Shown here: positions 3,994-64,000 of the stretch, in pieces
How the letters are laid out: every line of letters begins with the position of its first letter
Numbering within the stretch: position 1 is the first letter of the stretch
From: Bacilli bacterium
Lineage (GTDB): Bacteria > Bacillota_I > Bacilli_A > RFN20 > CAG-826
Reading direction: 5' to 3'
Length of the DNA stretch: 64,000 nucleotides
Assembly: GCA_017445245.1 (NCBI GenBank)
Contig: JAFSUM010000023.1
Span: 6,115-70,114, forward strand
The notes under the pieces: model-generated
Seen by the model: the letters and a program-made list of their open reading frames with translations, nothing else
Told to the model about the DNA's origin: nothing
The model's database searches: none
Made by a program: the position numbers and the translations under genes

Positions 3994-4010
3994 CGCATAT
4001 AAAAAAGTGG

Positions 4011-4039
4011 TTGCAAACTCTTTGGCACGTTCCTATAAT
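4011..4039 (+). promoter_or_regulatory. Near-consensus SigA promoter for tRNA-Leu
   Basis: TTGCAA at 4011-4016, a 17-nt spacer, then TATAAT at 4034-4039, about 10 nt before the tRNA 5' end. Confidence 0.65.
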
Positions 4040-4048
4040 CTTCTCGCT

Positions 4049-4133
<85 letters not shown>

Positions 4134-4144
4134 CTAGATGAATC

Positions 4145-4167
4145 GGAGTCCGAGAGGACTCCTTTTT
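4145..4167 (+). terminator. Rho-independent terminator after the tRNA
   Basis: GGAGTCC-GAGA-GGACTCC followed by TTTTT. Confidence 0.7.
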
Positions 4168-4232
4168 CGTTCTTTTTATGTCATTATATTCTCCTTCTAA
4201 TATAATTAGGCGATTCAGCAAAGGAGAACCCT

Positions 4233-44725: not shown

Positions 44726-45670
44726 TTAGCGTGGCAACTCAGGCAAACAACGGGATATGGCGCCTTTAAAGCCAACCGCCCTCAAACGAGCAATTTTCTT
44801 CACACACTCGCCGCGCTTCTCTTCGAATTCGGAAAAATGAATCCGGACCATCTTCGTATTAATAGCGCTAAACAAGAATTGAAAATAAGGGAGGTCGGCA
44901 GAACCGATACCGCAGCCCAAACAATATATATCCGTAATTTTCCGGCTAAAAAGATCGCCGAAGAAAGCACCATGCCGCTCGATGGCTTTCTTTGTGTTTT
45001 TTCTTAAGGAGTCGTGGATGGCTTGCGCAGAATCACCATATATAAAATTGTGACATATTTCTTGTCCATAAGGACAGCCGTGCCCTATAATCAAATCTCC
45101 TTCCTCAATAGACCCGTGAATATGACAAACTCTGTTGGAACTGATGCCATAAATTTTCTCAAGTAGCATCGTGTAGTTGAATGTTAAGTAAAAACCAAAG
45201 GGGTCAAGCTGGTACTTCTTTTTGACATTTTGCGTATCAACGCTCTGAATCCACTCCAATAGCCGATCGGTAATAACCCAAGAGACACTCGTTCTGATGG
45301 AATCAGCCAAATCTTCAGCATCATAAATCCCATTAAAAGGGTGATCATCATCGAGTTCTTGAGAAATGTCGGAAAAAACACTGTCATAATCCAGTTCGCC
45401 TAATGCATCTTCTAGATCTGACCAAGTCTCACCCGAGTTCCAATCGAGCCACTCGATGAACAAACAAGCAGAACCCATTTCATCCACGATCACATCGCCA
45501 TGATGTCCGATAGCAACGTCCGGCACAGATAAATAGCCTCTAGGAAAATAATGGGTCGTTTTAACTAGATACTCTCTAAAATCAGAATATTTGGTGGGTA
45601 GGTTATGGCTTAGATCGAAGCCATTGCCGATGATATACAGATTGACTTGGTTATTTGATTGCTTTTTCAT
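44726..45670 (-). CDS. abiH: AbiH-family abortive-infection protein
   Basis: The N-terminal LYIIGNGFDLSHNLPTKYSDFREYL signature is typical of Pfam AbiH. ATG at 45670. Confidence 0.78.
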   Translation of the reverse strand: MKKQSNNQVNLYIIGNGFDLSHNLPTKYSDFREYLVKTTHYFPRGYLSVPDVAIGHHGDVIVDEMGSACLFIEWLDWNSGETWSDLEDALGELDYDSVFSDISQELDDDHPFNGIYDAEDLADSIRTSVSWVITDRLLEWIQSVDTQNVKKKYQLDPFGFYLTFNYTMLLEKIYGISSNRVCHIHGSIEEGDLIIGHGCPYGQEICHNFIYGDSAQAIHDSLRKNTKKAIERHGAFFGDLFSRKITDIYCLGCGIGSADLPYFQFLFSAINTKMVRIHFSEFEEKRGECVKKIARLRAVGFKGAISRCLPELPR

Positions 45671-45946
45671 GCAAATAATTATCAAGCGGTTTCCCAAAAA
45701 AGACGATGAGCAGGTGATACTTCCTTAAGAAAACTTGATGGACCGTGAACCGACAAACTAGAAGCATCGTGGCGTTGGCAATTCAGCCGGCATTAGTGAT
45801 CTAGGGGGAATGGGCCACCACCATTCCGTGTCATGAAAGCCTGAAACTAAGACAATAGGCATCACAAGTAATCGCCTAGGCAGGACAGTTGCGGCGAAAC
45901 TCCAGGATTGCGGGGTGCCAGCCCGTGCGAAAAGCACGGATTTCCA

Positions 45947-47985: not shown

Positions 47986-48147
47986 GCCCTATTTTTTGGT
48001 GAAAACCACCAAGGTTTGTGCAAGCAAACCTCGAAACCCATCTTGGGTATTGTGGCGACCGAACTCGTCCTTTCACGCTCGGGCGACCAGGAGAGCCTCC
48101 TGCCCGTCCGAGCGCTCACGCCGACTTCAGTCGCCATCTCGTAGGGC
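47986..48147 (+). ncRNA. Candidate retron msr-msd non-coding RNA
   Basis: Three short hairpins at 47996-48012, 48013-48030 and 48036-48048. An 84-nt GC-rich imperfect hairpin at 48053-48136 has outer stem TGGCGAC/GTCGCCA and tip AGGAG-AGC-CTCCT. It is bracketed by the complementary hexamers GCCCTA (47986-91) and TAGGGC (48142-47). Confidence 0.45.
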
Positions 48148-48152
48148 TTCAA

Positions 48153-49163
48153 ATGAAATACGCTAGCGAGTTTTTGACAAGAGGTCTCCTTCTTGAGACG
48201 AAATACCGCAAAAAAGATTTTTCTTATGGAAAAGGAAAATATTTGGAATTCGTCTTTTTGTGTGGAAAAGCGAGTCAACCGAATGACAACCGCGATCAAC
48301 TAACAAGAAAAATCATTGAGAAACAAACCTTCCGTTATTCCCTTTATTCTGAAAAAACGTTCCACGCTTTTACTTCTTCTGGTTTGGACTTGCTAACAGT
48401 TGAAGAGGTGCTCGCCGACATCAGTTCTAAGATTGTAATAATCGTTGAGAGTTATGGATCAGCGTGTGAATTGGGGGCGTTCTCCCTGCTGGATGACGGC
48501 CTATCAAAGTTGCTGGTCATTAACGATATTAAGCACAAAGGTGAAAATTCATTTATTGAACTGGGGCCGTTAACGAAAATACGGAGGAAGACCTTGGACA
48601 AAGGGGTGCTGTATGAGTCTTTTACAGGGGAGGATATTTGTTTTTCGCCTGGATTGGTTAATTCCATAGATGAGATTCGAAGGAGTGGATTCAAAAGGAA
48701 AATTTTCACTGAGGAACCAGAGGTCGAGCCAAGACAAATGGCAATAAATGATTTAGCTTGTCTAACTTGTCTTGTTTTTGAGTATGTGGTTCGGTTTGGT
48801 TATTTGCGAAAGAGCAATGTTCTAAATGCGGTAAACTGGCTGGCCCAAAACGTAAATGAGCTCCCTCTTGTTGCGCGCCTCTCCTCGAATAATATGCTAG
48901 ACGAATCCGAAACGCGGGAAGCAGTTTACGCAATACCTGTGATCTTGACTGAATTAGGCCTTTTTGCTACGGCTGATCATCGGGGAGAATCTTATTACCG
49001 CTTGGGCACGAGAATAAGCAATGATCATCCCGTTGATCTAAACAGGCTATCCGGTCTAATTTTTCATGGGATCTTTTCTCGTTCTACAGAGATTCGCAAA
49101 CTGACGAGCAAAATCCGAAATTGCGCTTGCAAAGAAGGTTTCCAGTTATGGGAAGAAGCTTGA
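48153..49163 (+). CDS. Retron effector, nucleoside 2-deoxyribosyltransferase-like (Ec73 / St85-RcaT-type)
   Basis: FVFLCGKA and IIVESYGSACELGAFS resemble the NDT-like Rossmann core. It lies between the ncRNA candidate and the RT and overlaps the RT start. The track's extension from 48018 runs through the structured RNA region. Confidence 0.55.
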   Translation: MKYASEFLTRGLLLETKYRKKDFSYGKGKYLEFVFLCGKASQPNDNRDQLTRKIIEKQTFRYSLYSEKTFHAFTSSGLDLLTVEEVLADISSKIVIIVESYGSACELGAFSLLDDGLSKLLVINDIKHKGENSFIELGPLTKIRRKTLDKGVLYESFTGEDICFSPGLVNSIDEIRRSGFKRKIFTEEPEVEPRQMAINDLACLTCLVFEYVVRFGYLRKSNVLNAVNWLAQNVNELPLVARLSSNNMLDESETREAVYAIPVILTELGLFATADHRGESYYRLGTRISNDHPVDLNRLSGLIFHGIFSRSTEIRKLTSKIRNCACKEGFQLWEEA

Positions 49164-50158
49164 TTGAAGTCGTCGCCTATTCGCTGTCTTTTTCGCCTCA
49201 ATTTGTGGCGGAATGTGCAGGCAGCTCCCCTTGGTCCCGCAGTTTTTATCGGCGCGTCTCGATCCCGAAAAAGAACAAACCAAATGAGAGACGAATCATC
49301 TATTTGCCATCGCCGGAAATTAAACTCATGCAGCATTTTCTCGTTGAAAGGTATATTTCTAAGTTGCCCGTCCACGGTTCCGCGACCGCTTATCGACGCG
49401 GGAGCAGTGTAGTGAAAAATGCTAAAGCGCATACTGGAAATAGTCATTTTCTCTTAATGGATATTGAGTCCTTTTTCGATTCAATTCAGCGGGGCAGGGT
49501 TAAACGCATGTTGTTGAACAATGGGGTTTTCGTTAATCCGGCGGATGCGGAAATGTTGATTTCGCTTTGCACATATGATGGCCATTTTGTCCAAGGCTGT
49601 GTTTCTTCACCCTCTGTTGCGAACGCTTATCTTTATGAATTCGACAATAAAATGGATATGCTAGCCCGCGGGCTTCCCAATGGGGTTTATACAAGATATT
49701 CAGACGATATTGTGCTTTCTTCGTCTGAACGAATCCCCGGGCAAATAGCCGCGGAAGTCGCGGCGGCCTTAGCAGAATTTGGGTTGCGAATAAATCACAA
49801 GAAAACGCATTTTATTAGCAACAGACAAAGAATTCATATTACCGGTATTCGACTCAAAGATAACAAAAAGCTTGGTCTCAACACTTTGTTTAAAAAAGAA
49901 CTAAAGAACGATGTTTATCAATTTTGGAAAAAGTGTTCTTTGAGCGGGGCCGACCTTAAAGATAAAAACCGTCTCTACGGCAAACTGGCTTACCTTAAAA
50001 TGGCGGATCCCTCCTACTATAACACCATAATAACAAAATACCGATTTGGATGTCGGACGCTGTTGGATTTCCTACATTGCTTGGTTTTAGAAAACGATCA
50101 CTTGATGCTTCCTCCAGACAAAAGGTTTACCGACTGTTCTTCAAACCGAATTGAATGA
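49148..50158 (+). CDS. Retron-type reverse transcriptase
   Basis: YRRVSIPKKNKPNERRIIYLPSPEIKLMQ, NAKAH (NAxxH), LLMDIESFFDSI, RYSDDIVLSS (YxDD) and RQRIHITGIRL (VTG-like) motifs. About 336 aa with no extra domain. Confidence 0.85.
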   Translation: MGRSLIEVVAYSLSFSPQFVAECAGSSPWSRSFYRRVSIPKKNKPNERRIIYLPSPEIKLMQHFLVERYISKLPVHGSATAYRRGSSVVKNAKAHTGNSHFLLMDIESFFDSIQRGRVKRMLLNNGVFVNPADAEMLISLCTYDGHFVQGCVSSPSVANAYLYEFDNKMDMLARGLPNGVYTRYSDDIVLSSSERIPGQIAAEVAAALAEFGLRINHKKTHFISNRQRIHITGIRLKDNKKLGLNTLFKKELKNDVYQFWKKCSLSGADLKDKNRLYGKLAYLKMADPSYYNTIITKYRFGCRTLLDFLHCLVLENDHLMLPPDKRFTDCSSNRIE

Positions 50159-50369: not shown

Positions 50370-51212
50370 ATGTGGAAAAAGAAAAACGCCATCAAGGCAT
50401 TGAATTGGGCACTCGCAATCTCTTCGTTTGTTGGGGCGCTTTTGTCTTTTATCTTGCTCCCGCACGATTATTGGTGGGTTGGGTTAATAGTTTTTATCAC
50501 CGCCTTTATTGCCGCGTTTTTGTTGATTTACTTAGTACTGAGGTTTAAGAAGCGCCATAGGATTTCTGGTAGGGGATCGCTTCTTATCGAGTCCAGATAC
50601 GGTAACATTCTGAACATAAAAAGAGAAAGACGAAAAAAGTCGAAGCCGGTGATCGTGATCCCCGTTAACTCCTCTTTTGATACTATCGTCGAAGACAGTC
50701 CAAGTGTTGTGGATAGGATTGTTGAAGGGACATCAATTCATGGACAATGGCTCAAAAAATACGCATCGACACCTGAATTGCTAAAAAGAGTTGATTGCGA
50801 AATCAATCAGTTCCTGGTTGACAAGCACTGTTCTCCGATAAGCGTTTTAACGCATAAGAGGGGGAAACAAAACGTATATCCACTGGGGAGCCACGTCTTT
50901 ATCGAGAGGGATGATTATACGTTTTTACTATTCGCGTTAACCGAGTTCGATGAACACAACAAAGTAATCAAAAAGGACGCGGAAGAATTCACGCTTTTAA
51001 TGAAGAAGCTTATGGACATTACCGATGAATGTGCCGGTAAACACGTCTATATCCCTGTTATGGGTACAAAGATAGCCCTCTTCGGAATCGATGAGCTCTC
51101 ATCTTTCGAATATATCAAGAATGCCGCCTTGAATAAGAAATGCACTTTGAGAGCGTCCCTATCCATCGTTATTTACGAAGACTCAAGGGACAAAGTTTCA
51201 ATCTATGATTAG
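50370..51212 (+). CDS. thsA: Thoeris type II ThsA-like effector: two TM helices plus a Macro (ThsA_Macro) domain
   Basis: Two N-terminal TM helices, then VIVIPVNSSFDT..SIHGQW..YIPVMGTKIALFG, which matches the ThsA Macro pattern. Confidence 0.68.
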   Translation: MWKKKNAIKALNWALAISSFVGALLSFILLPHDYWWVGLIVFITAFIAAFLLIYLVLRFKKRHRISGRGSLLIESRYGNILNIKRERRKKSKPVIVIPVNSSFDTIVEDSPSVVDRIVEGTSIHGQWLKKYASTPELLKRVDCEINQFLVDKHCSPISVLTHKRGKQNVYPLGSHVFIERDDYTFLLFALTEFDEHNKVIKKDAEEFTLLMKKLMDITDECAGKHVYIPVMGTKIALFGIDELSSFEYIKNAALNKKCTLRASLSIVIYEDSRDKVSIYD

Positions 51213-51223: not shown

Positions 51224-51850
51224 ATGAGCCATAGAGTATTCATTAGTTTCAAAAAGGAAGACCTTTCTTACAAGAATAAGATAGTTGCGAAGTTAGAAGA
51301 AAAAGGCATACAAGTTAACCATCTCGACGAAGAAATTCGTTCGGAGGATATTGATTACGTGATGCAGCAAATCCGTGATAAATGGCAAGGGTCAACGACA
51401 GTCACCATATTTTTGATTGGCACGCATTCATCGGAAAACGAGGGCCTCGATTATTATGGCAGGAATCATCAGAGCTTTATCATACGTGAACTCAGGTCTG
51501 CTCTTTCTGATAGAGAGGGGAATCCTCGCGATGGAATTCTTGGAGTTATCTTACCGGAAATGGAACAGAAAGTTTTTGGTGGTTCGTATATATGTAAGCA
51601 CTGCCAACAAACTATCAGCATCGTCAGGATAGATGATTCAACAGTAATCCGAGAATTCTCCAAAAATTACTATCTAAGATCAGACGACTGCGGGCACTTT
51701 GAGGAGGATGGACGGTTTTGTGTCTTGTGCAGATATAATGAATTCATGCAAGATCCTGAAAAGTTTATCAACCAAGCATACGAAAAGCTTGGTAAACCAA
51801 TTGCTAAATACGTGACTTATAAGGGAATCAAGCACGAAGGCGATTATTGA
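51224..51850 (+). CDS. thsB: TIR-like (DUF1863/ThsB-type) protein
   Basis: HRVFISFKKEDLSYKNKIV start and a conserved Glu region FIIRELRSAL. It lies 11 nt downstream of the ThsA-like gene. Confidence 0.72.
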   Translation: MSHRVFISFKKEDLSYKNKIVAKLEEKGIQVNHLDEEIRSEDIDYVMQQIRDKWQGSTTVTIFLIGTHSSENEGLDYYGRNHQSFIIRELRSALSDREGNPRDGILGVILPEMEQKVFGGSYICKHCQQTISIVRIDDSTVIREFSKNYYLRSDDCGHFEEDGRFCVLCRYNEFMQDPEKFINQAYEKLGKPIAKYVTYKGIKHEGDY

Positions 51851-52183: not shown

Positions 52184-52813
52184 TTAGAAAAACCTTTTGG
52201 CGAAAACTATCTTGCACTTAGCAACCCCCATACGCACGCCAACGAATACGAAATGGTATACAAGCGCCACAGGGATGCACATCGCCAGCGCAAGCAACAC
52301 GATAACCACCCCTACCCTTGCGCTTGAGGCAATGTCGAACAAGGGGACTATCGCATTCACGTATCCCGCAAAGAACGCATAATGGATAAACCATAGGGGC
52401 ATGGAAAGCCTGCCAAGCCAGATCAAAACGAAATCCAGCCAACGCGGCATGGCGCGTTCGTCGAACAAAGAAACGGTCAGGAATAGTAACGGCAGCAACG
52501 CAAACGGGCAAACAAGGCCTTTCCTAACGATCCCTAGCACCGCCAAACCGACGATGGAAAGAACGAGATAGAACCACCACTTGTCCAATTTCGCCTTGCT
52601 TAGCAGGGAACGCGCCTTCTCGAAGATGCCATATCTATAGAAAGCGACGCCACCCAATACGGAAATGAAATGGATGAGGAGCCCCCGTAACGAATCGTAT
52701 GCATCGTTTTTGTCTAGAACAGTCCAGACGACAACCGCAATCGTCAACGGCACGTACGCGATGAGCAGGCCGACGGACCAATGCGCCTTCCGCGAGAGTC
52801 TTTTGGGCGCCTC
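52184..52813 (-). pseudogene. N-terminally truncated acyltransferase_3-family (O-acyltransferase) membrane protein
   Basis: Only the C-terminal ~200 aa (5-6 TM helices, LGRLSMPLWFIHY) are in frame. An in-frame TAG lies at 52814-52816 and there is no ATG. The track's start at 52753 is GTG. Confidence 0.55.
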
Positions 52814-52940: not shown

Positions 52941-54701
52941 ATGAAACTCGTAGAATTTTCCATTACAAACTATCGATCCATCTCGGGCAAGGTCACGTTA
53001 AAACTCAGCGACTATACAGTTTTAATTGGAAAGAACAATCAAGGGAAAACTAACATTCTCAAGGCCATACATCTGTACTTTTCCCTGTTGAGGAGCAGAA
53101 CATATCTAATCCCCTTTGGCCATCTTGCGGAATCCATGTTTTCCTGCGGTTTTTCTTTTGAACGTGATTACCCTAGAGCTGCAACACACAAGGATAAACA
53201 GGTCACACTATGCGCTTCCTTTTCGTTCAACGAAGATGACATCCGGGCGATTAAAACTAAAACAGGCATCAAAAGTGATGGCCGCCTCGTCCTAAAAGTA
53301 GACTTGCGCGAGGCCGATGGCAAAAAATCTGAGTTTGTTTGGGCCATTCTGCATCGGCGGCAAAAAAGCGCAGAAAGATACAGGAATAATATCATTCAAA
53401 TTTGCGATTACATTAATAGCGCTTTTTCCTTTGCATATGTCCCTGCTGTTAGAACGGAAAAAGACGTCGAAAACACCGTTCATAGTCTTATTTACGGCAA
53501 CATAAAAGAGAAGACAAACTCTGACGAGTACCTTTCTCTGCGTGATAAATTGCATCAATTGGAAGAAACGGCAGCAAATGAATATAACAAAGAATTGCTC
53601 GAAACCATGTGCGCTTATGCGCCTTCGTTGAAAGGCGTGCATATTAATATCAGCAGCCAAGAACTTCAATCCAACTTCGACCCTATTGTGACCATAGATG
53701 ACGGCGTCAATACAGAGCTTAGCCATAAAGGCAGCGGCCTTTCTTCGCTTTTGGTTATGGCGCTAACTAATTTCGGAAGAAGGAGCAGTTCACTAACAAT
53801 ATTCGAAGAACCCGAGTGTCATTTACACGCAGATGCCATTCATAAACTCAACATGAACCTGCGCGAGGCAAGCCGTTTTTCTCCTCTCATCATCTCCACT
53901 CATAATCCTAGTTTCGTTTGCTCAACGAATTTGGATGCCACTTACATCGTTAATAAGGGGATTCCAAGAACTCCCAAAAGCATAGATGAAGTTAGAAGGG
54001 AGCTTGGCTTAATCGGGGCTGATTCATTATTCTTCTGCGAGCAGGTTTTATTGGTTGAAGGTCCTACCGATGTGCGAATTCTTACGAAGGCGTTCTCTTT
54101 GTTCGCGCCAGCAATACATCAAAAACTATTAGAACGAAGTCTAGAGATTTTCGCATCCCACGGATCATCAAAGATCCCTTTTTATGCACAAGTATGCAAT
54201 CAATGGATTCGCGATTGCTATGTTTTGCTGGATCATGACGAGGCTGGGGTGGACGCTTACGAAGAGATCAAGAGAACTTTTGGCCCGAAGAAAGTAATGA
54301 TGCTGCCCGAGATACGGGCAGTCAAGGGGCCTGAAATTGAAAACTGTATTCCGCCTCGGATCGTCGTAAAGGTCCTCCAAGATTATGGATTGCCTGTTGG
54401 TGTCTCTGACGTTCTTTCCTCCAAATTGCGTTTTGCTCTTTTCCTGAAAGACCGGGCAAACAGGGCCGGCAAACCACTAAACGATGAAGACATTGACAAC
54501 ATCAAAGCGGCCATCGCTAAGGAATTTGAGGGCTGCACCATGGCCGATCTCGACCAAAACATACAGAAATACTGGCAAAACGTAATTGAAACAATCTCAT
54601 TAGGGTTTGGTTTGAGCAACCGTGACGAAAGCGATGATGACGACAGCTCTCCCAATGACTTGTTTGAACAAATTGCCATTTTTGATTTGGACGATTTTTA
54701 A
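52941..54701 (+). CDS. OLD-family ATP-dependent nuclease (ABC-type ATPase plus TOPRIM), solitary
   Basis: KLVEFSITNYRSI..IGKNNQGKTN Walker A, LTIFEEPECHLH Walker B, and TOPRIM motifs VLLVEGPTDVRIL and LLDHDEAG. Confidence 0.8.
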   Translation: MKLVEFSITNYRSISGKVTLKLSDYTVLIGKNNQGKTNILKAIHLYFSLLRSRTYLIPFGHLAESMFSCGFSFERDYPRAATHKDKQVTLCASFSFNEDDIRAIKTKTGIKSDGRLVLKVDLREADGKKSEFVWAILHRRQKSAERYRNNIIQICDYINSAFSFAYVPAVRTEKDVENTVHSLIYGNIKEKTNSDEYLSLRDKLHQLEETAANEYNKELLETMCAYAPSLKGVHINISSQELQSNFDPIVTIDDGVNTELSHKGSGLSSLLVMALTNFGRRSSSLTIFEEPECHLHADAIHKLNMNLREASRFSPLIISTHNPSFVCSTNLDATYIVNKGIPRTPKSIDEVRRELGLIGADSLFFCEQVLLVEGPTDVRILTKAFSLFAPAIHQKLLERSLEIFASHGSSKIPFYAQVCNQWIRDCYVLLDHDEAGVDAYEEIKRTFGPKKVMMLPEIRAVKGPEIENCIPPRIVVKVLQDYGLPVGVSDVLSSKLRFALFLKDRANRAGKPLNDEDIDNIKAAIAKEFEGCTMADLDQNIQKYWQNVIETISLGFGLSNRDESDDDDSSPNDLFEQIAIFDLDDF

Positions 54702-55064
54702 TTGCCGATCAAAGAGTGAAGAATCACCCAAACTTAATCCTGCCTAGAGCAGCTCTACAGGAAGCATCAAATATGTGCTTCAAAGCAAAAAGAGATAGCC
54801 CCAGTGAATATGACACGGCAGAAGAAATATAGATACCCGTTCACGAAGCTACGTCAGCGGATCTAGAGAAAAGACCTGATATTAAAGCACCTGGCAAGGA
54901 ACATATAGCAAAAAGGCAACGGTAGCCCCCTGCCCGTGAGAGGATATAGTCTAGTCGCTTAAGGACGTATACCCCGGTGTCGCATTCTGATGAAATCTTG
55001 TTCAAAACAAGAGCACTAAGCCCCTCGCGCCCAAATGTATGCGTGTGCTAATATCTTGAATAAT

Positions 55065-55970
55065 ATGAAAGGCATAATCCTCGCAGGCGGCTCAGGTTCC
55101 CGCCTCTATCCGATAACCTACGTAACCAGCAAACAGCTTTTGCCTATATACGACAAGCCGATGATCTACTATCCCCTCAGCACCCTGATGCTCGCGGGGA
55201 TTCGTGACATCCTGATCATCTCCACCCCGGAGGATACTCCGCGGTTCAAACAGTTATTAGGCGATGGTAGCGCGTTCGGCATCCATCTTTCCTACGCGGT
55301 CCAGCAGGTTCCCAACGGTTTGGCCCAGGCTTTCGTCGTCGGGGCCGAGTTCGCGAAGGGTGAGCCCTGTGCGTTGATACTAGGCGACAACATCTTCCAC
55401 GGCGCGGGTCTCACCGAACATCTGAAGCAGGCGGTACGCCGCGCGGAGAAAGAAGATACTGCCTCTATCTTTGGCTACTACGTTAAGGATCCCGAGCGCT
55501 TCGGCGTGGTCGAGCTGGACGAAAACGGCAAACCCGTCTCCATCGTCGAGAAATCGCCCTCCCCGAAATCGAATTATGCTGTTACGGGTCTTTACTTCTA
55601 TCCCAAGGACGTCATCGGGAAGGCGAAGGAAATAAGGCCCAGCGCCAGGGGGGAATACGAGATCACCGACCTCAACTGCGTGTACTTAAAGGAAGGCAGG
55701 CTAAACGTTACCACCCTTGGTCGCGGTTACTCCTGGCTCGATACCGGTACCCAGGAATCCCTCATCGACGCCTCAATGTACATCCGCATGCTGGAAGAGC
55801 ACCAGGGCATCAAAGTGTGCTGCCCCGAGGAAATCGCCTTCCTCAACGGCTGGATAAGTAAGGAGCGGCTGATCGAAGCCGGGCAGTCCATGGCCAAGAA
55901 CGAATACGGCCAGCACCTGCTTAACGTCGCAAGGGGCAAGATCCTCTATTCGAAGGAAGAGGGGGAATAG
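55065..55970 (+). CDS. rmlA: Glucose-1-phosphate thymidylyltransferase
   Basis: [18 protein letters not shown] start. The RmlA family is conserved throughout. Confidence 0.93.
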
Positions 55971-55974
55971 AAAG

Positions 55975-56520
55975 ATGCTTACCATGACCAAGACCGAAAT
56001 AGACGGCCTCGTCATCCTCGAACCCAAGGTATTCGGGGACGACCGTGGCTATTTCATGGAAACGTACAACAAGGGCGACTTCGAGAAGCTCGGCCTCCAT
56101 TATGATTTCGTCCAGGACAACCAGTCCAAATCAAGGAAAGGCGTCCTCAGGGGATTGCACTTCCAGGTCAATTATGCCCAGGCCAAGCTCGTCCGCGTAT
56201 TAGGGGGCGAGGTATATGACGTCGCCGTAGACCTCCGAAAAGGAAGCCCCACCCATGGCAAATGGGTTGGCGTCCGCCTTTCTGGCGAGAACAAGAAGAT
56301 GTTCATGATTCCGCGCGGCTTCGCACACGGTTTCCTCGTGCTAAGCGAAACCGCCGTGTTCGCCTATAAATGCGACAACCTATACCACCCCGAGGACGAA
56401 GGGGGCATCCGTTACGACGACCCCTCCATCGGCGTGCGATGGCCGGACGTAGGAGAAGTCCTTTTGTCCGACAAGGACAAGAACCGCCCGTTATTGGGGA
56501 ATGCGAGGATCGAACTCTGA
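55975..56520 (+). CDS. rmlC: dTDP-4-dehydrorhamnose 3,5-epimerase
   Basis: FGDDRGYFMETY, VLRGLHFQ and RGFAHGF motifs. Confidence 0.93.
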   Translation: MLTMTKTEIDGLVILEPKVFGDDRGYFMETYNKGDFEKLGLHYDFVQDNQSKSRKGVLRGLHFQVNYAQAKLVRVLGGEVYDVAVDLRKGSPTHGKWVGVRLSGENKKMFMIPRGFAHGFLVLSETAVFAYKCDNLYHPEDEGGIRYDDPSIGVRWPDVGEVLLSDKDKNRPLLGNARIEL

Positions 56521-56521
56521 T

Positions 56522-57397
56522 ATGCGCTTCCTCGTCACCGGCGTAAAAGGGCAATTAGGCTACGACGTGGTACGCGAACTGCGTAGCCGCGGCTTTAACG
56601 ACGTCATCGGCATCGACATCGAGGAACTCGACATCACCGACGAAAAGGCGGTGCATGCCTACGTTAATTCTTCTAAACCCGACGTCATCTTCCATAATGC
56701 CGCCTGGACGGCGGTCGACAAGGCCGAGGATAACAAGGAACTTGTCTATAAGGTAAACGCCTTGGGACCTAAATGCCTTTCCGAGGCCGCGAAGGAAGTC
56801 GGGGCGAAGATCGTCTACATCTCCACCGACTACGTCTTCCCCGGGGACGGGGAGAGGTTTTATGAACCAAACGACCCCGTAGGCCCCAAATCCACCTATG
56901 GCCTTACTAAATGGCAGGGAGAGGAATTCGTACGTGCCTATGAGAGGCACTTCATCGTACGCATCAGCTGGGTGTTCGGCATCAACGGGAACAACTTCGT
57001 GAAGACGATGCTCCGCCTTTCAAAAACCCATAAGGAACTAAACGTGGTTGACGACCAGATCGGTTCGCCTACCTATACCTTCGATTTGGCTAGGCTACTG
57101 GTCGACATGGCCCTTACCGACGAATTCGGCACCTACCACGCGACCAACGAGGGGATCTGCTCCTGGGCCGAATTCGCGAAGGAGATCTTCGCCATGTCGA
57201 AGAAGGACGTCATCGTCCATCCCGTAACCACCGAGGAATACAGGAAACTGAACCCCAACCAGACGGAGCGTCCCCTGAATTCGCGGATGAGCAAGGCCAA
57301 GTTGGACCAGCATGGTTTCAAGCGCCTCCCCGATTGGAAGGACGCACTTCGACGTTACCTAAGGGAACTGGAAGCAAAAGAGGAGGAACGTGCATGA
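56522..57397 (+). CDS. rmlD: dTDP-4-dehydrorhamnose reductase
   Basis: MRFLVTGVKGQLG start, STDYVF and the YGLTKWQGE (YxxxK) motif. Confidence 0.9.
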   Translation: MRFLVTGVKGQLGYDVVRELRSRGFNDVIGIDIEELDITDEKAVHAYVNSSKPDVIFHNAAWTAVDKAEDNKELVYKVNALGPKCLSEAAKEVGAKIVYISTDYVFPGDGERFYEPNDPVGPKSTYGLTKWQGEEFVRAYERHFIVRISWVFGINGNNFVKTMLRLSKTHKELNVVDDQIGSPTYTFDLARLLVDMALTDEFGTYHATNEGICSWAEFAKEIFAMSKKDVIVHPVTTEEYRKLNPNQTERPLNSRMSKAKLDQHGFKRLPDWKDALRRYLRELEAKEEERA

Positions 57398-58419
57398 ACT
57401 TTCTAATCACCGGCGGCGCCGGCTTCATCGGCGGGAACTTCCTCCACATCATGACCAGGAAGCATCCGGAGGACCGTTACGTCTGCTTGGACGCTTTGAC
57501 CTATGCGGGTAACCTCGAAACCCTTCAGCCCATCATGGACCTGCCGAACTTCCGCTTCATCAAAGGCGACATCCGTGACCGCGAACTCGTCGAAAGGCTA
57601 TTCGAAGAAGAACGTTTTGATATCGTCATCAACTTCGCGGCCGAATCCCACGTGGACCGTTCCATCGAGAACCCGCAGGTGTTCTTGGAGACCAACATCG
57701 TCGGCACCTCGGTATTGATGGACGCCTGCCGTAAATACGGGATCAAACGCTTCCACCAGGTATCCACGGACGAAGTATACGGGGATTTGCCTTTGGACCG
57801 CCCGGATCTTTTATTCCGTGAGGATACCCCCTTGCATACCTCCAGCCCCTATTCCTCCTCCAAGGCCGCGGCAGACCTACTCGTGTTGGCATACCACAGG
57901 ACATACGGCCTTCCCTGCACGATTTCCCGTTGTTCGAACAACTACGGGCCGTACCAGTTCCCGGAGAAACTTATCCCGTTGATGATCCAGAAGGCCACCC
58001 GCGACGAGAAACTGCCCGTATATGGGGACGGCAAAAACGTAAGGGATTGGCTGCACGTGGCGGACCACTGCGAGGCGATAGACCTGATCGTCCGCAAAGG
58101 ACGTGACGGCGAAATCTATAACGTCGGTGGCCATAACGAGCGCAGCAACCTGGAAGTTGTTAAAACTATCCTCAAGGCCCTGAGCAAGGATGAAAGCCTC
58201 ATCGGCTACGTGAAGGACCGCCTGGGCCACGACCGCAGGTACGCGATTGACCCGCACAAGTTAGAAACCGAGCTAGGATGGAAGCCCCAGTACAACTTCG
58301 ATACGGGCATCGCCCAAACCATCCGTTGGAATCAAGAGAACCAAAGCTGGCTTCGTAACGTCGAATCCGGTGAATACCTTAGATGGATGAGGCGATATAA
58401 TTATTTACATGGGAAATAA
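57394..58419 (+). CDS. rmlB: dTDP-glucose 4,6-dehydratase
   Basis: MNFLITGGAGFIGGNF start, STDEVYG and YSSSKAAAD motifs. The start overlaps the rmlD stop as ATGA. Confidence 0.93.
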   Translation: MNFLITGGAGFIGGNFLHIMTRKHPEDRYVCLDALTYAGNLETLQPIMDLPNFRFIKGDIRDRELVERLFEEERFDIVINFAAESHVDRSIENPQVFLETNIVGTSVLMDACRKYGIKRFHQVSTDEVYGDLPLDRPDLLFREDTPLHTSSPYSSSKAAADLLVLAYHRTYGLPCTISRCSNNYGPYQFPEKLIPLMIQKATRDEKLPVYGDGKNVRDWLHVADHCEAIDLIVRKGRDGEIYNVGGHNERSNLEVVKTILKALSKDESLIGYVKDRLGHDRRYAIDPHKLETELGWKPQYNFDTGIAQTIRWNQENQSWLRNVESGEYLRWMRRYNYLHGK

Positions 58420-58819
58420 CAAAAACACTTATTTACTCCTTCTATCCCAACGCCAAAATCGGGACGCCTATGCTTCAATCGTGTGTTTACTCAGCTGCAC
58501 ATTAGTTTGTTCGGCGCTAATCATCGCGTATGGCCTCACTGGAAACGCATGGTTTTTCATTGGGTCTTCTGCTCCGATTACTGTGTTTTGGTTATTAGGC
58601 GCCGCTTTTGACGCTGAAGTCATCGCATTCGAACGTTTATCATTAGAAAAATCAAAAGTCCCGGAAGAGGATGCCACGTTCTCGGATTTGAGAATTCTCC
58701 CGCGGAATCGCAAACAGGATTATCCCGTAGCCTTGGTGAGCAACCTCAAAACGGTGTTCTATTCCCTATCGCTTATCAGCCTAATGTCGGCGGGCATCGC
58801 TTTATTAGTTAGCCAATGA
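58409..58819 (+). CDS. Small polytopic membrane protein (3 TM helices), overlapping both neighbours
   Basis: Three hydrophobic helices. The ATG overlaps the rmlB 3' end by 11 nt, and the stop overlaps the next start as ATGA. Confidence 0.5.
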   Translation: MGNNKNTYLLLLSQRQNRDAYASIVCLLSCTLVCSALIIAYGLTGNAWFFIGSSAPITVFWLLGAAFDAEVIAFERLSLEKSKVPEEDATFSDLRILPRNRKQDYPVALVSNLKTVFYSLSLISLMSAGIALLVSQ

Positions 58820-60501
58820 GCACGCCTTCTATTTTTTCGCGCCTAAACGCGTTCCTAGCATCTGACCACCATTGCCTTCTTCTCAGCGGACCATGGGGCT
58901 GCGGCAAAACCTATCTCATCGACCATTGGGTGGAACAAAGACAAAAGGATCAATTGGCAGAGAATCTTTTGCGCCCAGATAAATACATCCGCATAAGTTT
59001 ATTTGGCAAACCGGACATTAATTCTATCTATTGTGATGCCCTCTCACAGATTTTCACCTCCAGAAAACTGTTCAAGAGAATGCACAACTTTGGCGAGTCG
59101 TCGTTTGGAATTGGACTCGGGCCAGTTTCGTTAAATGCGCCCTTGTCATTAATCGCCGCGGGCATGGAAAACGATTTTCCGCCCATCCTGAAACATCATC
59201 GGAGCATCATCATAATAATTGACGACATAGAACGCGCCTCGCCAAATGTTTCTTTTGAAGATTTTTTAGGTTTTGTCGAAGTCCTACCGAGTTACATAAA
59301 AGTCATTTTGATTGCGAATAAAGAGGAACTAGGAGAAAGGGGAACTGTTTTCTCACGATATTCTGAACGCGTCATTGATGAAGTTATTGCGATTTCTGAA
59401 CCAACAAAAGAGGTGCTTTCTTTGTTGCTAGGGGATCGTCTTTACCAAATAGCGAAAAACCATTCGAGAGTATTACGAAACCTGAGAACGGTAGTGCACT
59501 TTAAAGCTTTTGCGGCGTTTTTAAAACCTTCACTTCCTGACGAAGCGTTCCTCTACGCTTTTTACGTAATAACGCTTTATTACGAAGGCGAGCTTGGCAA
59601 TGACCATTATTTGAATTTCCTTCAGAATGAATTATCGAGACCAGCCAATAAATATGCCGAAGAATCCCTAAAGAAACTAATTGATGAGGCCCGAAAAACC
59701 CAATTCGATAACTATTCAATAGCGAATAAAATCATCCTCCGGTTACATTCTTTTCACGAAATCGAAGAATGGACTCTTGAATTCGCCAAGCAAATCATTC
59801 ATGCACTAGACACGGAAGACTACACCCGCATAAAAGAATTTAACATACCCGCAAGAAACATGGGCAAAGCGTTTGATTACGATTTTGTCGAAGTTGTGTT
59901 GTCGGCGCCAAATCTTCTGGTGGGATATCTGGATGCCTTTCAGCAGTTTTCCGAAGCGTTATCCAGTGCTTCTTTCAATATCTTTTCGATATGCAAATCG
60001 TATTCCTTGTTTAGGACATACTTCTTTAAAATGCTTCCTGTCAAGAAGCAGGCGGAAGTTCAAAATTTGACAGAGTCATTTGAAACCGCGCTCGTTACTA
60101 AGGCTGCGGAAACGGTGTTGGTTTTCAATTACCTTCCCATGTTCCTGCAGTTCGGACAAGACTCTTTGACCCAAAACATTTTTCGGAAAATAGATTGCTT
60201 AGGAAAGGAAAAAATCAAAGAGAGTTTGGCGAAAACTGAAATGGATATCGCCAGTATCCTCAATGTCGTTAAATTAATCAAACAATGCCCCGGTAAACCG
60301 GGCGATGATATCGACGAACTCTATTTATTGATTGGTCAAGAATTAGTAAAACGGTACTCATCTGATCCCAGGAAATACTTGGATTCCGTTAGATTATTAG
60401 CAAATAACATGGACGGTGACTCTCGATACCAAAAAAGCTATAAATTCATAAACAATCTGGAGGATAAGAGAATTGCTTTCATTTTCGATTTAACGCCCTG
60501 A
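58816..60501 (+). CDS. KAP-family P-loop NTPase (soluble, no TM insert)
   Basis: LLLSGPWGCGKTYLIDHW Walker A, IIIIIDDIERAS Walker B (KAP DDLDR-like), then VILIANKEEL. Confidence 0.68.
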   Translation: MSTPSIFSRLNAFLASDHHCLLLSGPWGCGKTYLIDHWVEQRQKDQLAENLLRPDKYIRISLFGKPDINSIYCDALSQIFTSRKLFKRMHNFGESSFGIGLGPVSLNAPLSLIAAGMENDFPPILKHHRSIIIIIDDIERASPNVSFEDFLGFVEVLPSYIKVILIANKEELGERGTVFSRYSERVIDEVIAISEPTKEVLSLLLGDRLYQIAKNHSRVLRNLRTVVHFKAFAAFLKPSLPDEAFLYAFYVITLYYEGELGNDHYLNFLQNELSRPANKYAEESLKKLIDEARKTQFDNYSIANKIILRLHSFHEIEEWTLEFAKQIIHALDTEDYTRIKEFNIPARNMGKAFDYDFVEVVLSAPNLLVGYLDAFQQFSEALSSASFNIFSICKSYSLFRTYFFKMLPVKKQAEVQNLTESFETALVTKAAETVLVFNYLPMFLQFGQDSLTQNIFRKIDCLGKEKIKESLAKTEMDIASILNVVKLIKQCPGKPGDDIDELYLLIGQELVKRYSSDPRKYLDSVRLLANNMDGDSRYQKSYKFINNLEDKRIAFIFDLTP

Positions 60502-60697
60502 AGGAATTAACGGCTACTATACTAAAGTTCATCTTGAACAGGGCCTCGATCAATAACGGATAGTCAGCGTGATTTGTGGCCCAAATGGGGATGACCCCGA
60601 TTCTAAAACACGAATTGCATCCATTCCCATGTAGATGCTCTCTCGAACGGATGTTCCAGATATTTCTTCACCTTGCAAATGTGCTTGAAGGCCTCCA

Positions 60698-61030
60698 TCA
60701 ACCAGCATCAGAAGGGAAACCACAGGGGGAGAGTTCGCCACCGATTGCAATCTTGTCTTTCCCATGAAGAACATTCATAACGCCGTATTCTTTTGACAAC
60801 AGCATCGTTTGAAGGCACCGCCTCAGAATTTTGTCATTCGAGACGTCGTTCTTTTTGGCCACCAGTCGAATTTCAAAAAGGATGGCGCGATCATCTTGCG
60901 CAAGGATGGCAAATAGCAGCGCGAACAAGGCACAAGTGATGTTAATAACCCAAGTCAAGATAACGTCTTTGCCGAAATACGCAAAATCAAAAGCCAAGAT
61001 GATTAGAATTGTGAAGGCCAGCATTGACAT
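60698..61030 (-). CDS. Small membrane protein (2 TM helices), possibly frameshifted with ORF 60550-60774
   Basis: Two N-terminal TM helices. Its 3' end overlaps a same-strand ORF in another frame by 77 nt. Confidence 0.35.
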   Translation of the reverse strand: MSMLAFTILIILAFDFAYFGKDVILTWVINITCALFALLFAILAQDDRAILFEIRLVAKKNDVSNDKILRRCLQTMLLSKEYGVMNVLHGKDKIAIGGELSPCGFPSDAG

Positions 61031-61047
61031 AAACGGGAAAAGACGTA

Positions 61048-61269
61048 CTACCGATTATTCATGAGCACTTTCTTAGGAATATCGAACATGCAGCGATGGT
61101 CTATTTGCAAACCAATGGCAATCGTGGTTAACACCAATCCTAAAATGGTGGAAACGGCGACAAAGGTTGCGAGAGCAGGCTCCGCCGAAGAGGGTCGCGC
61201 ACAATCAAAACAAGAAGGCGCGTTTCGAATGGTGGTAGCAACTAAAAGAGCGCCAGAAACGGCCATCAA
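61048..61269 (-). CDS. Small membrane protein, start uncertain
   Basis: Two hydrophobic segments. The frame stays open upstream of the track's TTG start (..LFANHRALGWLIL), so the protein may be longer. Confidence 0.3.
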   Translation of the reverse strand: MMAVSGALLVATTIRNAPSCFDCARPSSAEPALATFVAVSTILGLVLTTIAIGLQIDHRCMFDIPKKVLMNNR

Positions 61270-61327
61270 AATAAGCCATCCAAGTGCTCTGTGATTTGCG
61301 AAAAGTCGCTTTAGCAGGTTAAAGAAA

Positions 61328-61963
61328 CTACTTCCAGGGCCAGGGTATTTTGACCAAGAACCAAAAAGGGCAAACAGATTGGATTAAGCAAAACACGGCG
61401 CCTTTAGTCACTCGATATTTGTTGAGGATGATGCTGGATACGGCGATGTTCTGCCCCGCCATATCCTCTATGGATCCACGGTAACCGCGCTGCTGGACTT
61501 CGTTTATGTATTTTCCCCGTTTTGAAGCGACAGTCTCATTTGCGTCGTTTCCTTCGGCTTCGATATTGTATTTTGCTATATCGCCGTAAAAGTACTGGTT
61601 GCGAGAAACTTTGCCTTCTTTCACATCTACTTTACGTTTGGTTCCGTGAGTTCTTGTGTTCGGATTAAGCGCAAGCCCGACACAAAAAACGGAAATCATA
61701 TTGAGGAGGGCCACATAGGCAAGCACGCCAACGAAGATAAACCATGCCCAATCAGGCAAACGCGACTTCGATTCAGAGTAAACCTGCACCAAGCACCCAA
61801 CGATTCCGGATGTGGCACCCGCAATAAGAGCGGTGCTGGCCGCCAAAACAAACGATAGTTTAACGTCGGCATAACCTAGTTGACCGTAGATGATGTCATT
61901 CGCCTTTTGCAGGTTATTGTGCAAATCATTGTCGTCCAACTTCTTGTCGTCCAGATCGTCCAT
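61328..61963 (-). CDS. Pycsar-type transmembrane effector-like protein (PycTM / DUF5706-like)
   Basis: YADVKLSFVLAAS (aDxK) precedes TM1. TM2, a loop with YFYGDIAKY, and a terminal segment IAVSSIILNKYRVTKGAVFCL follow. This layout matches my recollection of Pfam PycTM. Confidence 0.5.
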   Translation of the reverse strand: MDDLDDKKLDDNDLHNNLQKANDIIYGQLGYADVKLSFVLAASTALIAGATSGIVGCLVQVYSESKSRLPDWAWFIFVGVLAYVALLNMISVFCVGLALNPNTRTHGTKRKVDVKEGKVSRNQYFYGDIAKYNIEAEGNDANETVASKRGKYINEVQQRGYRGSIEDMAGQNIAVSSIILNKYRVTKGAVFCLIQSVCPFWFLVKIPWPWK

Positions 61964-62056
61964 GCTATCTGCCTCCCCTTGCGTTTGAGCGCGCCTCTAT
62001 TGCCCAATATTATATATCCCAAATCTTTATGCAAAACACTTTGCCAAAGAGCGGTG

Positions 62057-62638
62057 TCAACCGTTTGTTTTTCCTCGGATAGAAGCGGGTGGCTGAAGGG
62101 GGTCGCTAGACTCCCTAGCTTTCTCGGCCTGATACTCCATTCTGCCTTTGTCACCATGCGAATACTCTCGAAGCACGACGGAATTATTCACCCCTTCAAG
62201 ATACAGTTGATAGGCTCGAATGATTGCTTGCGTGGTTCTCGCATTGAACAATAGCACGTTCGGCATATGCTCAACTTCCTCTTCCATATAAGCACAAACC
62301 AAATGGCCTTCATCTGGTTTTTGAGTGTCGTAGAAGTGGCGATTCTCTTTAGGTATTTGCCTTAGATCGCCCTCACTCCACTTTGAAAAAGCGTAGATTT
62401 TAGTTCCTTCCTTTTGATAATTGGGGCCCACGTGCATATACGCCAGTTTTGAAAACCGCTCTTCTTTCAATTGACTTTTGTCCAACCCCAAAGCAACCAC
62501 AGTTTCGGCATCCACTGCATAAAATCGAATAATAGCATCCTCACTCAAGACGCTGCTTGGGTAATAAATAACTTCGCTAAGCGGGAACTCTTCGTGAAAT
62601 TCATCATAGTCCGTCTGAAACGAACGATCTGTAGGCAC
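62057..62638 (-). CDS. Hypothetical soluble protein (193 aa) between the cyclase and the TM effector
   Basis: GTG start at 62638 lies 7 nt after GAAGGAG and overlaps the cyclase 3' end by 35 nt. No motif was recognised. Confidence 0.5.
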   Translation of the reverse strand: MPTDRSFQTDYDEFHEEFPLSEVIYYPSSVLSEDAIIRFYAVDAETVVALGLDKSQLKEERFSKLAYMHVGPNYQKEGTKIYAFSKWSEGDLRQIPKENRHFYDTQKPDEGHLVCAYMEEEVEHMPNVLLFNARTTQAIIRAYQLYLEGVNNSVVLREYSHGDKGRMEYQAEKARESSDPLQPPASIRGKTNG

Positions 62639-63878
62639 CTGGATACTCCTTCTTCGCTATGGCCTCGTTATTCTTGTTGTTCTGGAACCGCTGCGTATAT
62701 TCAGTGAGACCGACATCCGTTTTCCAATACAGGCCATAATCGATAGGTTTGAATTGGTTGGCTAGAAATTTTAAGTAAGGCTCTTTCAGCAATTCATTAT
62801 GCATTTGGTCGGTAATGACCAGGTCTCCTTCCTCGGCTCTTGTTTCTTGGAGCCAATCGCCCAAGGAAACGGTTCTGCCAAAAATAACAACATCGGTATT
62901 GTTTCTTATTCCAACCTTCGCCACGTAAATCGGCCCTGAAGCCATTCCAATCCCTACGCTGAACTTTTCCCCCGCGAAGAAATCCAATATGTTCATTCCA
63001 GAACGAACGGCTTCTCCGACGGAGACAACTTTCCCGGCATAAGCCCCGGCAAAAACCCCCACCTCCTTATCGCCTTGGATTTGAATGTGCTTGCCTGATT
63101 TGTCCACAATGGCACGCATTTTCTGCAAGGTGTGGGCTATTTGTCCAACCAATACGTTTAAATTCGAATCGTCAGGCTCAAAAAGAAGGGTAAACCCGCG
63201 AATATCCGCGAAGATGGCAGATCCGGAGATTTTCACCGGGCGATTCTCGGATAGCCGGTCTAAATCGGACAAGGAATTAGCCGATTCCATTAGAATTTGC
63301 CTAGAAGAATGGCGCGAGAAGGACTCCAGCACCTGTCTTCTGCTGTCATCGTCAAACGCGGCGTTTAAGGCATCCATGTTTGCAAACAAAAGATGAAGAC
63401 CTGCAGCGTAGTAAACGCCGCTTCCATCATCGGTATATTTCTTAATTCTTGGGCTAACCGTCATAGCGAATAATCTTCGCGCGCCAACGTTCAATGCCTG
63501 ATAATCGTCTTTGGCGATGGCAATCGTAGAGACTTGAGTTACGGACAAGAGTTTGCAAGCGAAATTCGCGGCATACCCGATAGACGTTTCTTCTTCTTCG
63601 AGAGAAAACACACGGAACTCCCCGTAATTAGCACCGATTCGGATATTCATAGGTTGGGACAAAGCTATTGCCGAATTCTCATTCGCAGTTTTCAAAGCTC
63701 CGTATGCATAAACGGCAATGTTGAGCATGACCAAGATGCAATGACCAACGCCTTGGTTTCTTTTGTCTTCTATATACAAATGAAGCCGGCTGCCAGTTAC
63801 TTTCTCAATCACCGCATCGGGATAACGTCCAACGGCGAAACGTTGGATGCTGGAGAATAGACCATTCAAGAAAGCCAA
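62604..63878 (-). CDS. Class III nucleotidyl cyclase with tandem cyclase-homology domains (N-terminal degenerate, C-terminal apparently active), PycC-like
   Basis: The C-domain carries AIFADIRGFTLLF (metal Asp), IQGDKEVGVF, GIGMASGPIYVAKVG and FGRTVSLG. The N-domain repeats the fold (CILVMLNIAVYAYG, IRIGANYGEF, GYAANFACKL) without the Asp residues. The start at 63878 is TTG, and the frame stays open to base 64000, so the gene may be 5'-partial. Confidence 0.65.
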   Translation of the reverse strand: MAFLNGLFSSIQRFAVGRYPDAVIEKVTGSRLHLYIEDKRNQGVGHCILVMLNIAVYAYGALKTANENSAIALSQPMNIRIGANYGEFRVFSLEEEETSIGYAANFACKLLSVTQVSTIAIAKDDYQALNVGARRLFAMTVSPRIKKYTDDGSGVYYAAGLHLLFANMDALNAAFDDDSRRQVLESFSRHSSRQILMESANSLSDLDRLSENRPVKISGSAIFADIRGFTLLFEPDDSNLNVLVGQIAHTLQKMRAIVDKSGKHIQIQGDKEVGVFAGAYAGKVVSVGEAVRSGMNILDFFAGEKFSVGIGMASGPIYVAKVGIRNNTDVVIFGRTVSLGDWLQETRAEEGDLVITDQMHNELLKEPYLKFLANQFKPIDYGLYWKTDVGLTEYTQRFQNNKNNEAIAKKEYPGAYRSFVSDGL

Positions 63879-64000
63879 GGATTTCCTTATATTATGAGTC
63901 CGTTTTTCTTCTTGTTCGAGTTCGTCGTCGAAATTAAGGATCTCGACATAGATGTGAAGCCCCTTCTTCCTTGAGGAAATGCTGGGTTGATGCTGCGATT

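Follow-up and report, generated by a model that had tools for sequence, protein, structure and literature searches.

At one end of a 64,000-nt stretch of a Bacilli bacterium genome (GenBank assembly GCA_017445245.1, contig JAFSUM010000023.1, positions 6,115 to 70,114; hereafter the window, meaning the whole stretch analysed), three genes follow one another on the minus strand in the order PycC, E2-like, PycTM. They encode a cyclase of Pycsar, the antiphage system that rests on pyrimidine cyclases, a 193-aa protein with features of ubiquitin-conjugating (E2) enzymes, and a membrane effector. A preliminary description of this DNA had proposed a Pycsar-like module here, and profile searches bear this out: the PADLOC PycC model PDLC00765 matches cyclase residues 13–406 (E = 1.8e-24, with a further PycC model at 1.2e-23), and the PADLOC PycTM model matches the 211-aa third protein at 3.3e-20. 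The gene between them, left as 'hypothetical' by current annotation, is a strictly conserved member of the operon, and its likely relationship to the cyclase is the main subject of this analysis.

Every open reading frame (ORF) of the operon was verified at the coordinates collected in Table 1; the proteins of this metagenome-assembled genome (MAG, 'Bacilli bacterium') carry the NCBI locus tags IJS37_03830–03855. The cyclase frame is free of stops from position 63998 to its stop codon at 62604 and, as had been pointed out, is still open at the window edge. Extension along a 113.4-kb contig (ENA ERZ27256819 k141_1660996, locus L001) supplied the true start: the whole protein has 468 aa, and only its first four codons (MNSQ) lie outside the window. 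This ATG, 12 nt past the edge, agrees with the N-termini of orthologues; the start chosen by NCBI (IJS37_03855) is an internal TTG at window position 63878, which gives 424 aa and loses the first strand of the N-terminal domain. A 71-aa hydrophobic ORF upstream of the cyclase (L001 282–497, outside the window) is called in three contigs of the lineage. The E2-like gene starts at the GTG at 62638–62636, with the sequence GAAGGAG 7 nt before it, within the cyclase coding sequence, and its frame overlaps that of the cyclase by 35 nt, as first described. Judged from the sequence, the E2-like gene is predicted to be translationally coupled to the cyclase.

A tandem cyclase with a conserved C-terminal tail

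The cyclase carries two cyclase domains in one chain. Long PADLOC PycC profiles (477–486 positions) span both halves of the protein, the Pfam model Guanylate_cyc exceeds its cut-off (31.9 against 21.9 bits) with its best stretch at residues 261–404, mainly in the C-terminal half, and the PDB sequence matches CyaB (3r5g) and BcPycC (7r65) are confined to that half. A structural model of both domains, built with AlphaFold2 (AF2) from a 6-sequence alignment, shows a duplicated fold with a disordered C-terminal tail (predicted local distance difference test, pLDDT, 86; predicted template-modelling score, pTM, 0.84). Foldseek placed P. aeruginosa PaPycC (6YII) first among the structures resembling this model (E = 3.8e-21, TM-score 0.68 over 476 columns), ahead of human soluble adenylyl cyclase and then AC9, which like 6YII are tandem pseudo-heterodimers. 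When the two halves were aligned with each other by hhalign (E = 5.6e-5), HIYVEILNF of the N-terminal half came to lie opposite IFADIRGFT of the C-terminal half.

Residue conservation was assessed in an alignment of 19–20 orthologues. In the C-terminal domain the metal-binding residues D269 (FADIRGFT; FADxRGFT in the alignment) and D314 (IQGDKE here; QFQGDRE in the alignment) are invariant, in keeping with the preliminary assignment of these two motifs, and the Asn/Arg pair of the 'GxxVNxAxR' element is missing. In the N-terminal domain the first metal-binding Asp is gone; the aligned position, opposite D269, is E23 here (HIYVEILNF, residues 19–27) and N, S, C, T or I elsewhere. That domain retains invariant Asn149 and Lys153 (IGYAANFACKLL; IGxAANxAAKLQ in the orthologues), and by the orthologue alignment and hhalign each half supplies catalytic residues that the other lacks. 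We therefore predict a single-chain pseudo-heterodimer in which the C-terminal domain is active and the N-terminal domain degenerate, much as had been suggested at the outset. The segment then named as the degenerate metal motif, CILVMLNI, was the wrong one, since hhalign pairs HIYVEILNF with IFADIRGFT and CILVMLNI falls within a helix of the modelled N-terminal domain (residues 84–107).

The tandem arrangement, which had been thought unusual for Pycsar, is real but already known: two cyclase domains in succession are the defining feature of clade A PycC (PMC11224242), and 6YII is the best structural match. By its domain architecture and its structural match to PaPycC the cyclase is of the clade A type. 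PycC of clades A–D is reported to make cyclic UMP (PMC11224242); a preprint predicts a preference for ATP in E2-associated relatives of Pycsar (10.64898/2026.08.12.744502), so a pyrimidine product is not assured for this enzyme. In two other loci, L003 (554–1956, a near-identical strain) and L030 (3486–4800, a distant relative), the cyclase is frameshifted at about profile position 355–359, which could reflect pseudogenisation, a shared slippery site or an assembly error.

The cyclase ends in a tail with the motif Y-[NT]-[GKPA]-A-[WY], which is conserved in 77 of 77 complete metagenome C-termini (49 distinct tails) and in all 19 orthologues first examined. The motif reads YNGAW in 62 of the 77, YNKAW in 8 and otherwise in 7; the window has YPGAY. 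A variable polar linker precedes it, 1–14 variable residues follow it, and in the model the tail is disordered beyond the last helix (pLDDT below 50 for residues 454–464). As the GTG start of the E2-like gene overlaps the Gly and Ala codons of the motif, we considered whether conservation of the tail is a by-product of the overlapping Shine-Dalgarno sequence and start codon. This is excluded by the codons of the motif, which vary synonymously, and by the start of the E2-like gene, which shifts relative to the motif; the motif is thus conserved at the protein level. By analogy with the E2-dependent synthases discussed below, the YNGAW-like tail is likely a docking or processing site for the E2-like protein.

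A conserved E2-like gene between cyclase and effector

A word-indexed homology search with the 193-aa protein returned no match beyond itself, and little was gained with a profile version. Exhaustive scanning of 1.84 billion representatives with HMMER recovered a family of 49 clusters, 15 of them at E ≤ 1e-10, whose members are mostly 170–200 aa long. Five residues (H101, C115, N127, H161 and G165) are invariant in an alignment of 35 divergent sequences. No relatives were found in the plasmid, phage and IMG/VR collections. Two long proteins, P0034 (1690 aa) and P0037 (836 aa), match E2-like residues ~74–115 in 8–9 repeated stretches; these may be repeat proteins that have a short motif in common with the family, or a compositional artefact.

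The strongest result concerns synteny: the gene keeps its place in the operon in nearly every locus where the sequence allows it to be seen. Sixteen GTDB genome loci were found through the E2-like gene, in rumen and gut MAGs of Clostridiales, Lachnospiraceae, Oscillospiraceae and Mollicutes. Directly upstream of the gene stands the cyclase, unless the contig stops there; all 14 with adequate flanks carry cyclase, E2-like gene and PycTM on one strand, and the remaining two have a contig end or degraded sequence downstream. All four cyclase homologues inspected (P0003, P0004, P0005, P0007) carry the E2-like gene, flanked by cyclase and PycTM. The same picture emerged from a census of 80 metagenome loci that were retrieved through the cyclase, and hence with no bias as to the middle gene. 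All three genes are present in 68, with PycTM 3′ of the E2-like gene; the cyclase and E2-like gene are followed by a contig end in six; the contig ends directly after the cyclase in four; and the last two have an in-frame cyclase–E2 fusion (L044) and an IS66-like element directly after the cyclase (L073). Of the 76 metagenome loci with room for the E2-like gene, 75 accordingly have it after the cyclase, counting the fusion. The absence from all homologous loci that the preliminary description had named as a refuting result is clearly not observed: the 193-aa gene, there called 'inserted', is a conserved component of this operon in genomes and metagenomes alike.

Three loci depart from the common arrangement. 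The L044 fusion (3995–5863, 622 aa) runs from a tandem cyclase, its YNKAWG tail included, directly into an E2-like domain; this may be a Rosetta-stone fusion of natural origin or the product of a sequencing error that deleted a stop codon. A comparable run-on ORF in L026 (107–1198) matches the end of the cyclase, the E2-like protein and the start of PycTM. In L073 (1490–5290) the IS66-like element, comprising a 637-aa transposase and small accessory ORFs, replaces the E2-like and PycTM genes.

The AF2 model of the 193-aa protein (pLDDT 91.7, pTM 0.86) consists of an N-terminal helix, a four-stranded sheet with inserts and a hairpin ending at C115, followed by a short helix, a long helix from N127 and a C-terminal helix from H161. 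Against the PDB, the top 50 Foldseek matches of this model are all E2 ubiquitin- or SUMO-conjugating enzymes (E ≥ 0.46, TM-score 0.31–0.45), and against viral models the top six are E2 enzymes of giant viruses (E ≥ 0.14, TM-score ≤ 0.45); matches in both sets are weak. A divergent 'LCTH' subgroup of the family (A6), whose members share the cyclase–E2–PycTM operon context, is closer to known profiles: for six of its nine members, PADLOC models of E2 and E1–E2 proteins from the cyclic-oligonucleotide-based antiphage signalling system (CBASS) are the sole families matched, with a best E-value of 3.7e-5 and collinear, near full-length alignments (for example, residues 4–159 against 3–142 of 216). 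The earlier statement that this protein belongs to no recognisable family accordingly holds for Pfam, NCBIfam and PDB sequence searches, which found nothing for the family, and fails for structure and for the PADLOC E2 models.

The invariant residues recall a particular kind of E2. In the E2-only CBASS of S. marcescens, C101 is reported to be catalytic, H87, 14 residues upstream, to be essential for the covalent link to cGAS, and H152 to be a second functional His; conservation of the two His residues is described as confined to E2-only CBASS, where the enzyme cuts the tail of cGAS behind a conserved Gly and makes both thioester and isopeptide links (10.1101/2022.05.25.493364). The family described here has H101-x13-C115 and H161 invariant in its 35 aligned sequences, with the same spacing of 14 from His to Cys. 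As part of the three-gene explanation set out below, we regard the 193-aa protein as probably an E2-like Cys/His enzyme that stands alone, homologous to the single E2 of 'E2-only' type II CBASS. The initial suggestion that the extra gene might be a regulator fits this assessment: we judge it a real component and likely a regulator.

Effector, trailing reading frames and the surrounding island

The 211-aa protein fits the layout of PycTM, as had been noted from the start. In addition to its PADLOC match, it scores 25.1 bits against Pfam PycTM (PF18967), slightly under the 27.2-bit cut-off, and its orthologues have precomputed PF18967 matches. Downstream lie the two small membrane ORFs of the preliminary description, with one and two hydrophobic segments, respectively. 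They do exist; the roles offered for them, as extra effectors or an immunity factor, found no support, as neither the 72-aa ORF (61048–61266) nor the 110-aa ORF has homologues among 27 related loci (L007–L033). The 72-aa ORF has no NCBI annotation in the MAG, and the 110-aa ORF belongs to a cluster of three members, all from this lineage, and corresponds to IJS37_03840 (99 aa) at NCBI. Since they lack homologues in related loci, we treat both as outside the system.

Pfam and PADLOC scans show the window to be a dense defence island (Table 1). The neighbours of the cyclase and E2-like gene are PycTM, the small ORFs and a KAP NTPase. The KAP NTPase matches the PADLOC candidate system PDC-S49 (2.6e-21) and overlaps by 4 nt the gene for a 136-aa transmembrane (TM) protein, which weakly resembles PDC-M50A (E = 0.006); this pair stands directly after rmlB, convergent to the Pycsar operon. 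In the distant relative L030 (178–6846), the cyclase–E2–PycTM operon lies within an rml cluster, between rmlD and rmlB, and in the window ~2 kb separate it from rmlB. It may be that the cyclase–E2–PycTM system repeatedly settles beside, or integrates at, the dTDP-rhamnose cluster.

Table 1 Features of the window, with the operon first and the neighbouring genes below
Feature	Position	Strand	Basis
PycC cyclase, clade A (tandem) type, 468 aa	62604..64000	-	PADLOC, Pfam, AF2, Foldseek
N-terminal degenerate cyclase-homology domain (predicted), ~residues 15-210	63381..63968	-	orthologue alignment, hhalign, AF2 repeat
C-terminal catalytic cyclase domain (predicted), ~residues 259-431	62718..63236	-	Pfam, invariant columns, PDB sequence matches
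Cyclase C-terminal tail motif, YPGAY here	62631..62645	-	motif alignment, AF2 low pLDDT
Shine-Dalgarno GAAGGAG of E2-like gene	62646..62652	-	direct sequence reading
E2-like (predicted UBC-fold) Cys/His protein, 193 aa, middle gene	62057..62638	-	AF2, Foldseek, PADLOC relatives, synteny
PycTM-like membrane effector, 211 aa, 3 hydrophobic segments	61328..61963	-	PADLOC, Pfam, hydropathy, synteny
72/73-aa ORF, 1 hydrophobic segment, possibly no gene	61048..61269	-	hydropathy
110-aa ORF, 2 N-terminal hydrophobic segments	60698..61030	-	hydropathy
AbiH	44726-45697	-	library scan of window
Retron-like NDT_II-A (type II-A)	48018-49163		library scan of window
Retron-like RT_II-A (type II-A)	49121-50158		library scan of window
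Thoeris ThsA-Macro	50370-51212		library scan of window
Thoeris ThsB-TIR	51224-51850		library scan of window
189-aa ORF, no assigned family	52184-52753	-	
OLD/AriA-like ATPase-TOPRIM	52941-54701		library scan of window
rmlACDB genes	55035-58419		window
136-aa multi-TM protein + 561-aa KAP-family P-loop NTPase	58409-60501		PADLOC

Relation to known systems and possible mechanism

The locus shares with canonical Pycsar, and with PaPycC in particular, a class III tandem cyclase, an adjacent membrane effector of the PycTM family and a setting in a defence island; the identity to PaPycC in the structural alignment with 6YII is 17%. Canonical Pycsar consists of cyclase and effector, whereas in this operon the two flank a strictly conserved third gene, seen in 68 of the 80 cyclase-retrieved loci and in all complete loci retrieved through the E2-like gene, and the cyclase bears a YNGAW-like tail. 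The closest parallel to this arrangement is the E2-only ('short') type II CBASS exemplified by S. marcescens cGAS–E2 (10.1101/2022.05.25.493364). There, too, a small stand-alone E2-like gene directly follows the synthase and encodes a catalytic-type Cys, preceded by a His at a distance of 14 residues and followed by another His nearer the C-terminus; the synthase likewise ends in a flexible tail, predicted as disordered here, that bears a conserved motif of small residues, and E1 and JAB partners are absent. The two differ in the synthase, which is a nucleotidyltransferase of the cGAS/DncV kind (CD-NTase) in CBASS and a class III cyclase here; in the effector, which is SAVED-2TM in S. marcescens and PycTM here; and in the tail, which has a penultimate Gly in E2-only CBASS and YNGAW followed by 1–14 variable residues here. 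Similarity to the E2 of E2-only CBASS is detectable only through the PADLOC E2 hidden Markov models (HMMs), and for only part of the family.

Coupling of Pycsar-type cyclases to ubiquitin-like machinery has been reported before. As summarised by Ye et al. 2024 (10.1101/2024.11.21.623953), citing van den Berg et al. 2024, type II Pycsar has a fused E2–E1 Cap2-like protein and a JAB peptidase; as far as this summary goes, it and the operon described here both tie a Pycsar-type cyclase to ubiquitin-like conjugation machinery. Pfam and PADLOC searches found no match to an E1 domain or a JAB gene, hallmarks of type II Pycsar and CBASS, in the 193-aa protein or the operon. A 'Pycsar-like-4' subclade of Pycsar-related cyclic mononucleotide cyclases has also been defined by the context of an E2 ubiquitin-ligase-like gene (10.64898/2026.08.12.744502); it and our locus share an E2-like neighbour, a likeness of gene context, and the single-domain E2-like protein and PycTM neighbour are points of contrast. 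In the literature available to the search, we found no account of a system that joins a stand-alone ~190-aa E2-like protein to a tandem cyclase of the clade A type, PycTM and a YNGAW tail.

The explanation we consider probable, with some reservation, is a three-gene abortive-infection operon of the Pycsar type in which the E2-like enzyme acts on the cyclase tail. In this scheme the C-terminal cyclase domain would contribute two metal-binding Asp residues and the N-terminal domain an Asn and a Lys to one composite active site, which would make a 3′,5′-cyclic mononucleotide. By analogy with E2-only CBASS, the E2-like enzyme would engage the disordered tail at its YNGAW-like motif and might process it, capture it covalently through a thioester or isopeptide link, or both. 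Engagement of the tail would hold the cyclase ready while the cell is uninfected and, upon a presumed phage trigger, would license or boost signalling; control of the cyclase could thus be activating or restraining. The cyclic nucleotide would then activate the three-TM PycTM, leading to membrane damage and abortion of the infection. In a more specific form, which we would call 'E2-only Pycsar' and regard as a tentative possibility, an E2-like enzyme free of E1 and JAB would cleave the cyclase and covalently capture or polymerise it via YNGAW, a tail signal unlike the C-terminal Gly of CD-NTases.

This interpretation must be made cautiously, as several observations weigh against it. The motif Gly is present in ~85% of tails and is otherwise Lys, Pro or Ala (Ser in one genome locus); as it is not invariant, a mechanism of the ubiquitin-like C-terminal Gly kind cannot be assumed. 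The Foldseek scores of the E2-like model are low, the window's own 193-aa protein matches no E2 HMM of Pfam or PADLOC, which only divergent relatives do, and the PDB sequence searches of the family were empty. An hhalign comparison with six eukaryotic E2 enzymes was not significant, though in an E2-like register. The equivalence of the His, Cys and His residues to those of the S. marcescens E2 is suggested by pattern and spacing in the sequence, not by a direct alignment, and the frameshifted cyclases of L003 and L030 also have to be counted here.

One may postulate, alternatively, a middle protein with an E2-like fold whose action is non-covalent or directed elsewhere, either as a phage-sensing adaptor that binds the cyclase or as a Cys protease or ligase whose target is a protein of the phage or the host. 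The replaceable Gly and the weak E2 similarity favour such a role, as does an operon without an E1 or JAB partner; strict synteny, moreover, implies a functional link of the middle gene to the cyclase and PycTM and says nothing about chemistry. Invariance of a Cys and two His across 35 divergent members argues for catalysis over scaffolding, however, and the same His-14-Cys pattern with a distal His also marks the self-sufficient CBASS E2, which works without E1 or JAB. The L044 fusion, for its part, sets the tail beside an E2 domain. We consider this alternative unlikely, though it is the most serious of those weighed here. That the middle protein is instead an immunity or antitoxin factor, which would prevent self-killing by neutralising PycTM or degrading the cyclic nucleotide, might be suspected from the toxicity of membrane effectors and from the position of its gene, directly upstream of PycTM and frequently overlapping it. 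Yet family and profile searches revealed no similarity to known phosphodiesterases or antitoxins, the gene is coupled or fused to the cyclase and not to PycTM, and canonical two-gene Pycsar with the same PycTM family needs no immunity factor according to the cited literature, all of which makes this role improbable. Scarcely credible, finally, is the idea of an expanded Pycsar that carries the 193-aa gene as an inserted passenger and draws further effector or immunity functions from the two trailing small TM ORFs. The small ORFs are present, encode hydrophobic segments and figure in the output of some gene finders; nevertheless, it is the 193-aa gene that is conserved in essentially every related locus, and the small ORFs that lack homologues in the related loci examined, the 72-aa one being left out even by NCBI. 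A scan for promoters and terminators around the operon and the small ORFs gave counts at background level, which neither separate these ORFs from the operon nor link them to it.

The explanation in which the E2-like enzyme acts on the cyclase tail shifts attention away from the tandem cyclase, which had been viewed as the unusual feature of the locus, and towards the gene beside it. Pfam, NCBIfam and NCBI PGAP leave the middle gene 'hypothetical', and PADLOC matches only the cyclase and effector of the operon; because the middle gene goes unmatched, a conserved gene, probably the regulator of a Pycsar lineage widespread in gut and rumen Firmicutes, is invisible to these tools. The interest of the system lies mainly in its compactness, strict conservation and direct testability: its three genes offer handles in C115, H101, H161, the YNGAW tail and a natural fusion, and these bear on the chief question still facing work on Pycsar, namely how signal synthesis is linked to phage infection. 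If the E2-like protein acts like the single E2 of CBASS, E1-independent ubiquitin-like control would extend from CD-NTases to class III cyclases, and should the more tentative 'E2-only Pycsar' prove true, self-sufficient ubiquitin-like auto-conjugation would have been taken up a second time, independently, in gut Firmicutes, by a class of immune signal synthase unrelated to the first.

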